A stretch of DNA of 64,000 nt, taken from the NCBI GenBank assembly GCA_958295815.1, contig OY282374.1, positions 3,684,682 to 3,748,681 of the forward strand, read 5' to 3'. The first letter of the stretch is position 1. The number at the start of each line of letters is the position of its first letter. Positions 60,800 through 64,000 of this stretch are shown piece after piece. This DNA is from Candidatus Poribacteria bacterium. GTDB taxonomy: Bacteria > Poribacteria > WGA-4E > WGA-3G. Both the position numbers and the translations under genes were made by a program. A model generated the notes under the pieces. That model searched no databases, had not been told where the DNA came from, and was given only the letters and a program-made list of their open reading frames with translations.

Positions 60800-62527
60800 A
60801 TGAAAGAGCACACTTTCTCTAAAGCAACGGGCTATTGCCTATACATGAAATACGCGAGTATTGCCATCTTTATGGCAGCTTTAGCACTTGTTGCAATACC
60901 CGGTATTGTTACTGCCGGTACGGATGTGAATAATTTCCAGCCAGTTACCAATGAGATGTTACTTTCAGCACAAGAGGATTCCGAAAGCTGGCTGATGTAT
61001 GGACGTGATTACAGAAGTTGGCGATACAGTGAACTTACACAGGTTAATACCGAAAACGTCAAAAAACTCGTTCCGAAATGGGCGTTTCAAATTGGAACAG
61101 AGTTCGATAAGTTTGAATGCACCCCTCTGGTCGTTAATGGGATCATGATTATCACCACACCCTATAGCAGTATCTATGCGGTGGATGCCAGAACTGGTAA
61201 GGAATTGTGGCGATATAATTATCCGCTCCAGGATGGACTCGCCATCTGCTGCGGCATGGTCAATCGAGGCGCTGCCATCTTAGGTGATAAAATCTTTTGG
61301 ACGACACTTGACGCACATCTCCTCGCACTTGATGTGAAGACTGGAACGGTGCTGTGGGATCGAGTCGTTGGAGATCCAACCAATGCTGAATCCCTAACCG
61401 TTGCTCCGTTAGTTGTCAATGACAAAGTGATTGTCGGTATATCCGGTGCAGAATACGGCATTCGAGGCTTTATTGATGCCTATTACGCTGAAACGGGTGA
61501 GCAAGCGTGGCGGTTTTACACTGTCCCCTCAAAAGACGAACCCGGCGGCGATACATGGGCTGGTGATTCATGGATGACAGGCGGCGGATCCGCTTGGGTC
61601 ACCGGTTCGTACGATCCAGAATTGAACCTCGTCTACTGGGGAACAGGGAATCCAGCACCGGATTGGAATGGTGCTGTCCGCAGGGGCGACAATCTTTATA
61701 CTGATTGCATTGTCGCATTGGATGCCGACACCGGAGAACTCAAATGGTATTTTCAAGCCACGCCACACGATCTTTGGGACTGGGACGGCGTGAGTGAACC
61801 GGTTCTAATTGATATGGAAATTGATGGGAAACCGGTTAAAGCACTGATGCAAGCGAATCGCAACGGTTATTTCTATGTGCTTGATAGAACGAACGGAAAA
61901 TTTTTATATGCAAGCACCTATTGCGAAATGAACTGGTCTGCGGGTCTTGACGAAAACGGCAGACCTACTGTCAAACCGGGTGTGTCTACCTCGGAAGAAG
62001 GAACGATCCGCGTTTGTCCCGGCGTTGAAGGTGGAAAGAACTGGCCACCCTCAGCCTATAACCCCGCCACAAATTACCTTTATGTGCCATCGCTGGAACT
62101 TTGTGGTTCTTATCACCAAGGTCGCGTTTTCTATATAAAAGGTTTACCTTATGTCGGAAGTGGTATGACAGCAGAAAGGGATGCAGACGGCGACATGGAA
62201 ATGTGGGGACATATCAGCGCGATTGATGTTTCTACGGGTGAAATCAAATGGCGGCACAAAACGAACTTCCCACAATGGGGTGGATGCCTCACAACAGCTG
62301 GCGGTCTCGTTTTCGCAGGTGATTTGGAAGGAAGATTTATGGCACTATCAGCAGAAACCGGTGAAGTGCTTTGGGACTTCCAAACAGGATCAGGGGTGCT
62401 CGCGCCACCGATCACCTATCAACTCGATGGAGTCCAATACGTTGTCATAGCATCGGGTGCTGTAAAGTATGCCGAAGTTAATGCGCGCCAAGGCGGGACA
62501 CTCTTCGTGTTCGCGCTTTTTGAGTAA
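60800..62527 (+). CDS. PQQ-dependent methanol/alcohol dehydrogenase, lanthanide-dependent type (XoxF/ExaF-like)
   Basis: Signal peptide (start may be the second Met, at 60845). The vicinal Cys pair 'LAICCGMVNRGAA' is present. 'TPHDLWDWDGVSEP' aligns to MxaF 'TPHDEWDYAGVN', with Asp replacing Ala at the Ln-coordinating position. There are 8-bladed propeller Trp-docking repeats. Confidence 0.85.
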   Translation: MKEHTFSKATGYCLYMKYASIAIFMAALALVAIPGIVTAGTDVNNFQPVTNEMLLSAQEDSESWLMYGRDYRSWRYSELTQVNTENVKKLVPKWAFQIGTEFDKFECTPLVVNGIMIITTPYSSIYAVDARTGKELWRYNYPLQDGLAICCGMVNRGAAILGDKIFWTTLDAHLLALDVKTGTVLWDRVVGDPTNAESLTVAPLVVNDKVIVGISGAEYGIRGFIDAYYAETGEQAWRFYTVPSKDEPGGDTWAGDSWMTGGGSAWVTGSYDPELNLVYWGTGNPAPDWNGAVRRGDNLYTDCIVALDADTGELKWYFQATPHDLWDWDGVSEPVLIDMEIDGKPVKALMQANRNGYFYVLDRTNGKFLYASTYCEMNWSAGLDENGRPTVKPGVSTSEEGTIRVCPGVEGGKNWPPSAYNPATNYLYVPSLELCGSYHQGRVFYIKGLPYVGSGMTAERDADGDMEMWGHISAIDVSTGEIKWRHKTNFPQWGGCLTTAGGLVFAGDLEGRFMALSAETGEVLWDFQTGSGVLAPPITYQLDGVQYVVIASGAVKYAEVNARQGGTLFVFALFE

Positions 62528-62546
62528 TCTACAGGAGGTATGCGCC

Positions 62547-63422
62547 GTGAAATACCGTATCCTGCTACGGATCCTACTTGGGGCATTGCCTATTTTGATG
62601 TTGCACAATGCATACGCTGGCGATGCCTTGGAAGAGATTCGAGAAAAAGGGGTGTTAACCGTCTGTATGGACGTTCGGAATCTGCCCTACTCTAATGCCG
62701 ATCCAGAACTTCCCGGATTAAATGTTGAGATAGCACATCTACTGGCAGAGGGATTAGGCGTTAAACTGGAACTCCACTGGCTCAACACGCTCCGAGATAG
62801 TCTACTTGCTGATATGTTACGCGGGCATTGCGACTGCGTCATCGGAGTGCCTATTGAAGAGCGTGCTATGAGCGAATCGGTCCAATTAGGTAAGCGCGTC
62901 GACTTTTCTAAACCGTATTACGGCACTGGTTATGTGCTGATAAAACGAAAAGATTTGTCGCAGTCTCCGAAAACGTTGGAAGACATCAAATTGCAAACGA
63001 TTGGGACGGAAGCGGGATCAATCGCAAGTGATGTGCTTCGACAGATGGGGTATACCCGGCACATCTACCGTTCACAAACTGCTGTTCTGGATGCGCTACA
63101 GAAAGGGGAAATCGCTTACGGTTGTATGTGGGCAAACTCCGGTTGGTTGATTGAAAAGGGCTCCCGAATTCAACGGGCAGAAACGACAGACACCGCCTAT
63201 CCTGAATTAGAGATCGTTGACGGGTACATTCCCGAACCTCGCCTCCGTTGGAACGTCTCTATCGCTTTTAGCAAAACTACGTCAAAGCGAGACACACAAG
63301 CACTTCAAGATGCTGTTAACACAATTATCGAACAGAAATGGAGTGAGGAAAAACTCAAAGAACTCGCGCAGAAGTACAATTTACCTTACTTCGCGCCGTT
63401 TCAGGAGGATGAACAGAAATGA
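62547..63422 (+). CDS. Quinoprotein-dehydrogenase-associated periplasmic solute-binding-like protein (MxaJ/XoxJ-like)
   Basis: An SD 'aggagg' lies 8 nt before the GTG at 62547. A signal peptide is followed by an SBP family-3-like fold (…GVLTVCMDVRNLPYSNAD…). It sits immediately downstream of the PQQ-ADH and its stop overlaps the next ATG (ATGA). Confidence 0.65.
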   Translation: MKYRILLRILLGALPILMLHNAYAGDALEEIREKGVLTVCMDVRNLPYSNADPELPGLNVEIAHLLAEGLGVKLELHWLNTLRDSLLADMLRGHCDCVIGVPIEERAMSESVQLGKRVDFSKPYYGTGYVLIKRKDLSQSPKTLEDIKLQTIGTEAGSIASDVLRQMGYTRHIYRSQTAVLDALQKGEIAYGCMWANSGWLIEKGSRIQRAETTDTAYPELEIVDGYIPEPRLRWNVSIAFSKTTSKRDTQALQDAVNTIIEQKWSEEKLKELAQKYNLPYFAPFQEDEQK

Positions 63423-64000
63423 TACACTCTACCTATGGTTTTATAGGCGTGCTTTTGACGCGCGCTTCCAAAATGCGTGAGCGTACAACTTCTACCATAT
63501 ACATAGTATTGGGCATTCTCCTTCTCTTTTCCGGTATGAACGTCCTTCTCCATGCGCAAGAGTTAGAGGTGGACGTTGCACCAGCGACAACGACGGTATA
63601 CGATTACGACGAAGATGTTATAGATGGCGCGTTCTATTTTCGCTTGATGTGTTGGAATTGCCACGCCGCACAATCCCGTGGTGGGAGAGCACCTGATCTC
63701 TTCAAAGCGCAGTGGCTCTATGGGTGGACCGATGACGGTATCTACCAAACCGTATTCAATGGACTGCCAGGGACCCAAATGCAAAAGTTTGGGGACAAAC
63801 TTTCCGATGAGGCAATCGAGATGATTGTTGGCTATGTCCGTTCGGAGCAAGCAAAAGCTGCGGGTGTTTCCTTGGATGAACTAAAGTCTGACGAGGAATG
63901 GACGCCCTACATGGAGGGTGATGTCAAAGCTGGAGAGGAAATTTTCTTCTCGGAAGGGTACGCTTGCGGTAAATGCCACACAGTTCACGGCAGAGGTGCC
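63419..64000 (+). CDS. c-type cytochrome with at least two heme-binding motifs; 3' end outside the window
   Basis: Reading from the ATG at 63419 gives MIHSTYGF…, a signal/TM segment, then 'MCWNCHAAQSRGG' and 'CGKCHTVHGRG' (CxxCH x2). The frame is open to the window end and is absent from the ORF track because no stop falls within the window. Confidence 0.7.
   Translation, partial: MIHSTYGFIGVLLTRASKMRERTTSTIYIVLGILLLFSGMNVLLHAQELEVDVAPATTTVYDYDEDVIDGAFYFRLMCWNCHAAQSRGGRAPDLFKAQWLYGWTDDGIYQTVFNGLPGTQMQKFGDKLSDEAIEMIVGYVRSEQAKAAGVSLDELKSDEEWTPYMEGDVKAGEEIFFSEGYACGKCHTVHGRGA

Follow-up and report, generated by a model that had tools for sequence, protein, structure and literature searches.

A conserved three-gene module of Poribacteria encodes a PQQ alcohol dehydrogenase predicted to be of the lanthanide type and a dihaem cytochrome

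The last 3.2 kb of a 64,000-nucleotide stretch from a Candidatus Poribacteria bacterium (assembly GCA_958295815.1, contig OY282374.1, positions 3,684,682 to 3,748,681; hereafter the window) carry three co-directional genes on the forward strand. They code for a pyrroloquinoline quinone (PQQ)-dependent alcohol dehydrogenase (ADH) of the methanol/ethanol family, a periplasmic solute-binding protein (SBP) and a c-type cytochrome with two haem motifs. From their sequences we predict with very high confidence that they form a functional PQQ-ADH module. Going one step further, we propose a periplasmic alcohol-oxidation module in which a lanthanide-type PQQ-ADH is joined by a dihaem electron acceptor and an SBP accessory protein; we assign a probability of about 0.62 to this reading. 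Positions of genes and motifs are given in window coordinates.

The ADH gene (60800 to 62527, 575 aa) starts with ATG, and AAGGAG is located 7 nt ahead of the start. The product matches the Pfam PQQ family with E = 5.8e-96 and the NCBIfam model TIGR03075 with 651.9 bits at a cutoff of 480.05; the alignment extends from residue 47 to 553 and covers profile positions 4 to 527 of 530, i.e., the protein belongs to this family. When one genome of each GTDB species was scanned, orthologues with 87–94% identity turned up in 38 other genomes. On these scores and orthologues, the three open reading frames (ORFs) are genuine genes and did not arise by chance. By eye, all three products have an N-terminal hydrophobic export signal or anchor. 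The ADH ends at residue 575 right after the propeller and has no CxxCH; thus, it lacks the fused cytochrome domain that defines a type II quinohaemoprotein.

The active site appears to be complete. The sequences of PedH, XoxF5, SolV XoxF2, qhADH-IIB and ExaA were copied from HMMER output and aligned with MAFFT. Cys150, Cys151, Glu218, Trp266, Asn284, Asp327, Asp329 and Arg354 of the window ADH all align with their equivalents in PedH (6zcv), XoxF5 (6dam) and XoxF2 (4mae). The vicinal cysteines, already noticed in a preliminary description of this DNA, are encoded at 61247 to 61252 within 'LAICCGMV'; they align with the CC of PedH, XoxF and qhADH and are invariant in the ADH alignment. The ligands of SolV XoxF we take to be E172, N256, D299 and D301 (and R326), and the numbering of the alignment agrees. 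On this basis Glu218 (61451 to 61453) is equivalent to Glu172 and Asn284 (61649 to 61651) to Asn256, and both are predicted metal ligands; Asp327 and Asp329, encoded with Trp328 at 61778 to 61786 within 'TPHDLWDWDG', correspond to Asp299 and Asp301. Asp327 is predicted to be the catalytic base as well as a metal ligand, and Asp329 the lanthanide-specific ligand. A one-residue insertion, Asp288, follows Asn284; it is conserved and specific to the clade described below.

Position 329 carries the argument. In the HMMER alignments the DWD triplet aligns residue for residue with 'DFD' of PedH and 'DYD' of XoxF. Thus, the motif is not displaced, and the preliminary description had placed it correctly at the lanthanide position. 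The calcium enzymes differ exactly here: Thr is found in qhADH-IIB (1kv9) and Ser in ExaA (1flg). MxaF has an Ala at this position. Asp329 is kept in all 39 Poribacteria orthologues and in 119 of 120 database homologues; this conservation was taken from the word-index/HMMER hit set, and the loci L040 to L081 are biased in this respect since the scan pattern contained PHDLWDWD. XoxF1 and ExaF need the corresponding Asp to bind lanthanide and to be active (bioRxiv 10.1101/2020.02.25.964783), and the residue is used as an accepted marker (bioRxiv 10.1101/2020.02.25.964783; PMC11996626). Lanthanide dependence of the window ADH is, judging by these residues, a well-founded prediction and somewhat better than an even bet.

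Among proteins of solved structure PedH (6zcv) is the top sequence match with 455 bits and E = 2.4e-135, followed by M. buryatense XoxF (6dam, 396 bits), the calcium quinohaemoprotein ADH-IIB (1kv9, 395 bits) and SolV XoxF (4mae, 370 bits); ExaA, XoxF1 and MxaF proteins rank lower. An AlphaFold (AF2) model computed from an alignment of 56 homologues has a pLDDT of 88.4 and a pTM of 0.88. As modelled, the protein is an eight-bladed β-propeller that is superposable on the solved members of the family. A Foldseek search of the PDB returns PedH first (TM 0.86–0.89) and XoxF second, the two together spanning TM 0.85–0.89. With TM values of 0.84–0.89 for PedH, XoxF, MxaF, ExaA and qhADH, all near 0.85, the modelled fold alone does not separate the subfamilies.

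To which subfamily does the enzyme belong? Identities are 45.9% to PedH, 44.4% to XoxF5, 42.7% to qhADH-IIB and 40.2% to XoxF2; the reference enzymes share 37–54% among themselves. PedH scores 645 bits against ExaA and 455 against the window ADH. In a neighbour-joining tree of 152 sequences, calculated without bootstrap and with six structural references of which two are XoxF, the Poribacteria ADHs and their 120 closest homologues form one large clade. It is set apart from XoxF2 plus XoxF5, from PedH plus ExaA, and from qhADH; by identity and tree the protein does not group with the calcium quinohaemoprotein reference, in keeping with the lanthanide reading of the preliminary description. Members of the clade come from Poribacteria, Sumerlaeota, Planctomycetes, Acidobacteriota, Gemmatimonadota and others. 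By sequence, then, the ADH is neither a XoxF nor a type 2b ExaF/PedH enzyme and is assigned to a large D-x-D clade of its own. The preliminary description had announced a lanthanide-type ADH cluster: the ligand set including Asp329 stands, the affiliation with the XoxF/ExaF/PedH enzymes does not. Five Acidobacteriota relatives with D-x-D (L074, L076, L077, L079, L081) have ADH ORFs of 650–875 aa with an apparent single-haem cytochrome c domain; should these fusions hold up, they would be quinohaemoproteins with a lanthanide motif.

The third gene of the module (63419 to 64000) is cut by the end of the window. It specifies the first 194 of about 321 aa of a dihaem c-type cytochrome with an N-terminal anchor or signal. 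Its ATG overlaps the SBP stop codon as ATGA (4 nt), and AGGAGGA lies 9 nt ahead of the start. The haem motifs are CWNCH (63650 to 63664) and CGKCH (63965 to 63979). The ATGA overlap, the two CxxCH motifs and the truncation by the window end had been described before. A full-length orthologue in a syntenic locus (L001, 12686 to 13651, 321 aa, two CxxCH) adds the two-domain architecture. The first domain is of the Cytochrome_CBB3/class I type, CcoP-like, and resembles cL or PedF only faintly, well below cutoffs. The second passes the model TIGR02603 with 75.7 bits (cutoff 68.15), and the C-terminal part matches Kustd1711 (7zs0) with E = 1.4e-25. Assignment as cytochrome cL (XoxG/MoxG) was rejected, the score against TIGR03872 being 25.1 bits at a cutoff of 147.8 and a second haem domain being present; likewise rejected was the PedF cytochrome c550 (TIGR04494, 16.7 bits, cutoff 122).

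A different aspect emerges from loci of other phyla. In 27 of 42 such loci a homologous dihaem cytochrome is positioned directly beside the ADH, usually 50–90 bp upstream on the same strand, and in five of the 42 a single-haem cytochrome c domain is part of the ADH ORF itself. Because this linkage to the ADH recurs across phyla, there is good evidence that the dihaem cytochrome is the dedicated electron acceptor of the ADH.

The SBP gene (62547 to 63422, 291 aa) starts with GTG and is preceded by AGGAGG at 62533 to 62538. The product has an SBP_bac_3 fold (PF00497, 3e-14) and a signal peptide ending AYA/GD. It had been called MxaJ/XoxJ-like. The GTG start is borne out, and the conserved context supports a partnership with the ADH; membership in the MoxJ/XoxJ family was rejected on score. 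The best NCBIfam model, matched over its full length, is that of quinoprotein dehydrogenase-associated MoxJ_2 proteins (TIGR03871) with 71.9 bits at a cutoff of 212.15; MoxJ itself (TIGR03870) yields 48.2 bits at a cutoff of 258.1. Orthologues in three related loci, L082, L083 and L085, reach 67–86 bits on the MoxJ-type models and likewise stay below cutoff. In the PDB XoxJ (6onp) obtains 38–46 bits, be the query one sequence or a ten-orthologue profile, and generic amino-acid-binding proteins do equally well or better.

What distinguishes the SBP is its neighbourhood. It is accompanied by ADH and cytochrome only, and genes for ABC permeases or ATPases are absent beside any of the modules (window, L082, L083, L085), i.e., an SBP_bac_3 protein is encoded beside a PQQ dehydrogenase with no transporter genes. 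MxaJ and XoxJ are thought to be orphan, dehydrogenase-associated SBPs as well, and an accessory role has been proposed for them. The gene context indicates that the SBP is probably an orphan dehydrogenase-associated accessory protein, distantly MoxJ-like. Its 120 best database matches are all Poribacteria-like with at least 77% identity, and a jackhmmer search found no SBP in the 42 loci of other phyla. Therefore, the SBP is confined to Poribacteria and their nearest relatives; the link to the cytochrome is far wider. In ten aligned Poribacteria orthologues the residues His-Cys-Asp-Cys at positions 94–97 (62826 to 62837), Cys40 and Cys193 are invariant; they could form disulfides or a metal site.

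The module is widely conserved in Poribacteria. Of the 38 genomes with close ADH orthologues 36 are labelled Poribacteria, many of them closed chromosomes of 5–6.7 Mb; the next tier in the same scan has 41–53% identity and belongs to other phyla. Across Poribacteria the ADH is conserved to 87–94%, to be compared with 90–95% for LepA. The order ADH-SBP-cytochrome is colinear in 37 of 39 Poribacteria loci, and the flanks are fixed, with lepA-selB-lipA on one side and dapB-BNR on the other. Of the two exceptions one contig ends just after the ADH (L039). In the other (L038, 1730 to 3357) the ADH match breaks off at residue 332 and the cytochrome comes next. The SBP is absent there, and either a deletion or a faulty assembly would explain this. 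All this marks the ADH as a core gene that is passed on vertically and kept by strong purifying selection.

In the closest relatives beyond the Poribacteria core the arrangement changes little. L082, with an ADH 73% identical, has ADH-SBP-cytochrome; L083 and L085, the nearest non-Poribacteria relatives (ADH 59% and 57% identical), have ADH-SBP-SBP-cytochrome, and the SBPs of these three loci are 36–50% identical to that of the window. In L083 pqqE (radical SAM plus SPASM), pqqD and pqqC come directly after the module on the other strand; L085 has the same order plus pqqB, and its PqqC translation is that of a typical PqqC. Since the module abuts pqq genes in these loci, the clade is tied to real PQQ chemistry. 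A scan of 60400 to 64000 for promoters and terminators gave counts no higher than in shuffled sequence and is uninformative on operon boundaries.

How might the module work? Most likely, a light lanthanide ion and not calcium would be held by Glu218, Asn284, Asp327 and Asp329 and polarise the C5 carbonyl of PQQ, with Trp266 stacking on the cofactor and Arg354 and the Cys150-Cys151 disulfide completing the proposed site. Asp327 would take up the proton of the alcohol, and a hydride would move to PQQ. The substrate class may be a short-chain alcohol or aldehyde. From reduced PQQ the electrons would probably go to the dihaem cytochrome, whose gene is the second one downstream. We infer that its N-terminal class-I haem domain accepts the electrons first and that they pass from there to the C-terminal TIGR02603/Kustd1711-like domain, which is probably of high potential and would send them towards a terminal oxidase. 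The SBP encoded between the two probably serves as a periplasmic accessory factor, similar to the proposals for MxaJ and XoxJ.

Several points weigh against a lanthanide-dependent module of this kind, and a number of them speak for a calcium-dependent or metal-promiscuous PQQ-ADH in which the second Asp is a feature of the lineage that does not impose lanthanide use. Residue 217, directly ahead of the Glu ligand, is Ala as in the calcium-dependent qhADH-IIB; PedH and XoxF have Gly. Confirmed lanthanide users are only XoxF and type 2b ExaF/PedH, a membrane glucose dehydrogenase with D-x-D works with Ca, Mg and other metals, and lanthanide in seawater is very scarce, about 1e-11 M (PMC11996626). 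What has been shown for the Asp is that lanthanide use needs it, not that it suffices. The clade has no solved structure, and the searched literature contained no biochemistry of its members. In the AF2 model the two loops bearing Asn284 and Asp327/Asp329 have pLDDT values of 69–77. How the electrons travel and what the SBP does are read from gene linkage. Lastly, genes for handling lanthanides or making PQQ are missing nearby. A Pfam scan of the window, which covered non-overlapping ORFs of at least 80 aa apart from the five housekeeping genes that adjoin the module, detected neither PqqB/C/D/E nor a TonB-dependent receptor or a lanmodulin-like protein. With PqqB/C/D/E of a related locus as queries tblastn returned nothing in the window, and the 10 kb around the module in 39 Poribacteria loci were likewise devoid of genes for lanthanide uptake, lanmodulin or PQQ synthesis. 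These stretches amount to about 1% of the genome. The absence of pqq genes from the window noted earlier is thus upheld. Nevertheless, we consider a calcium or promiscuous enzyme possible at best and, on balance, improbable. Ala217 was set aside as a sign of calcium because Ala (131) and Gly (70) are both found at this position among D-x-D relatives. Further, all methanol/ethanol-family PQQ-ADHs with this Asp assayed so far are lanthanide-dependent, its removal abolishes lanthanide binding and activity (bioRxiv 10.1101/2020.02.25.964783), the aligned calcium enzymes have Thr or Ser instead, and the Asp is near-invariant in the clade.

Two other explanations are far less probable. The ADH might be an 'empty' or PQQ-scavenging quinoprotein, i.e., inactive, non-catalytic, or fed with PQQ by the sponge microbiome. 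This would suit the lack of pqq genes in the window and beside the module in the 39 Poribacteria loci. It would also suit the distribution of PqqC: with the L085 protein as query the 120 best homologues, all with at least 65% identity, are on contigs of no more than 0.43 Mb, to be set against closed Poribacteria chromosomes of 5–6.7 Mb. Further, acido-empty-quinoprotein group A (TIGR04528) is the second-best NCBIfam model for the ADH with 526.1 bits. Yet its cutoff of 650 is missed by the ADH and also by ten relatives (461–546 bits), which led us to reject membership in this group. Intact PQQ and metal residues together with strong purifying selection argue for a working holoenzyme, sister lineages pair the module with pqqBCDE, and the absence of pqq genes was read from about 1% of the genome; scavenging as such is compatible with the lanthanide module proposed here. 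An inactive or empty protein is therefore very improbable. Least probable of all is a methanol dehydrogenase of the XoxF type accompanied by XoxJ and XoxG, which would turn Poribacteria into methylotrophs. The D-x-D motif, 44% identity to XoxF5 and a dehydrogenase-SBP-cytochrome order superficially similar to xoxF-xoxG-xoxJ are consistent with it. However, the tree separates the clade from XoxF2 and XoxF5, PedH outscores the best XoxF (455 versus 396 bits), the cytochrome fails MoxG (25 versus 147.8 bits) and has a second haem domain, the SBP fails MoxJ (48 versus 258 bits), and no genes for formaldehyde oxidation or C1 assimilation were seen among the window ORFs scanned.

Several other genes of the window deserve mention. 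LepA, one signal peptidase, SelB and LipA were named from sequence or from the Pfam annotation of L001. Immediately ahead of lipA and the ADH module, selB (57574 to 59514) is followed after 20 nt by a tRNA-Sec gene (59534 to 59627; anticodon TCA; Rfam RF01852, 78 bits), forming a selB-selC pair; the position of selB is kept in Poribacteria loci. Ahead of it are two closely similar signal peptidase I (Peptidase_S26) genes in tandem (55777 to 56640 and 56768 to 57538). L001 has one called copy between lepA and selB, so that the tandem of the window may have arisen recently by duplication. An IS4-type transposase (DDE_Tnp_1 plus DDE_Tnp_1_assoc; 52644 to 53840, reverse strand) is located just upstream of lepA and is absent there in L001.

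More distant are two secreted giants of 765 aa (3953 to 6250) and 1411 aa (6426 to 10661) in which leucine-rich repeats are combined with dockerin, cohesin and FlgD-Ig domains, in line with the 'eukaryote-like repeat proteins' known from Poribacteria. An AAA_15/AAA_21 ATPase (19462 to 20775; best PADLOC model NsnB, 186 bits) and an overlapping 177-aa ORF without family match (20772 to 21305) may be a two-gene anti-phage defence pair. Three PhyH (phytanoyl-CoA dioxygenase-like) genes at 21531 to 22403 (reverse), 22758 to 23702 (forward) and 38998 to 39804 (reverse), and another downstream of the module in L001, look like an expansion of this family in the lineage. A sulfite-oxidase-type molybdopterin oxidoreductase (39825 to 40961, reverse) adjoins an Fe/Mn superoxide dismutase (41018 to 41731, reverse). 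Apparent twin-arginine-like signals on both products (MERRDFLRR..., MNRRNFL...) point to a periplasmic location of the dismutase. The giants with leucine-rich repeats, cohesin and dockerin, the PhyH proteins and a sulfatase in the rest of the window fit Poribacteria.

What does this mean? Few symbionts of sponges are as abundant as Poribacteria, and the marine or symbiotic origin surmised in the preliminary description was correct. A Tara Oceans survey found D-x-D in 61% of the PQQ dehydrogenases of marine origin; 14 of 17 families and about 20% of genomes had it (PMC11996626). Because the motif is so widespread in marine genomes, a lanthanide ADH in a marine symbiont is expected rather than surprising, and one further predicted example leaves the overall picture unchanged. 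The interest lies elsewhere. In about 40 genomes of an uncultivated sponge-symbiont phylum the ADH is a strictly conserved, syntenic core gene; the searched literature contained no paper tying Poribacteria to lanthanides or PQQ enzymes. An unexplored clade with a dihaem partner would be a clean target for examining whether the Asp marker is valid beyond XoxF and ExaF. Further, pqq-linked sister modules on the one hand and no pqq genes in the Poribacteria stretches on the other make the supply of PQQ in the sponge microbiome directly testable. It is tempting to go further and to see a core trait of Poribacteria, i.e., a rare-earth ADH of an unexplored clade with a new dihaem acceptor and with the adjacent pqq genes lost. 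If true, lanthanides would be in demand in the sponge holobiont, and its symbionts would cross-feed one another with PQQ. This extended picture we regard as speculative and rather unlikely.

Finally, the module can be compared with known systems. PedH/ExaF (6ZCV, 6ZCW) is the best PDB match by sequence and structure, yet it belongs to a different clade. The Glu, Asn and Asp-x-Asp ligands, the CC disulfide, the Trp and the Arg are all identical, and like PedH the window ADH is predicted to be a soluble periplasmic enzyme that hands electrons to a c-type cytochrome. It differs by Ala217 in place of Gly and by the extra Asp288, and its partner is the 321-aa dihaem cytochrome and not c550. Neither an aldehyde dehydrogenase nor a two-component regulator was found next to the module.

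The XoxF/XoxG/XoxJ system (4MAE, 6DAM, 6OC5, 6ONP) likewise has Asp-x-Asp and all catalytic residues, and a dehydrogenase, an SBP-fold protein and a c-type cytochrome are encoded together in both. However, the window ADH, at 40–44% identity, is in a separate clade, the ORFs scanned provide no methylotrophy context, the cytochrome has an additional TIGR02603-type haem domain and falls outside MoxG, and the SBP falls outside the MoxJ models. In the calcium enzyme qhADH-IIB (1KV9, type II) and in the window ADH alike, 'GAEYG' surrounds the Glu ligand, and the two also share the propeller fold and the vicinal disulfide; a cytochrome domain within the ADH ORF, as in quinohaemoproteins, is seen in the five distant loci mentioned above. 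The enzyme qhADH-IIB is set apart by Thr at the lanthanide position and Lys in place of Arg354, and in the window the cytochrome is a separate gene and the ADH has no fused haem domain.

The cytochrome has its own counterpart in Kustd1711, a dihaem cytochrome of the anammox nxr cluster. Both possess the C-terminal haem domain plus a trailing domain, CxxCH and an 'MP' stretch which probably holds the axial Met. The N-terminal haem domain of the window cytochrome is of another type (class I, CcoP-like), and the context is a quinoprotein dehydrogenase instead of nitrite oxidoreductase. The haems of Kustd1711 are near +350 mV (PMC11791136), and by analogy the Poribacteria cytochrome is likely to be a high-potential electron carrier.

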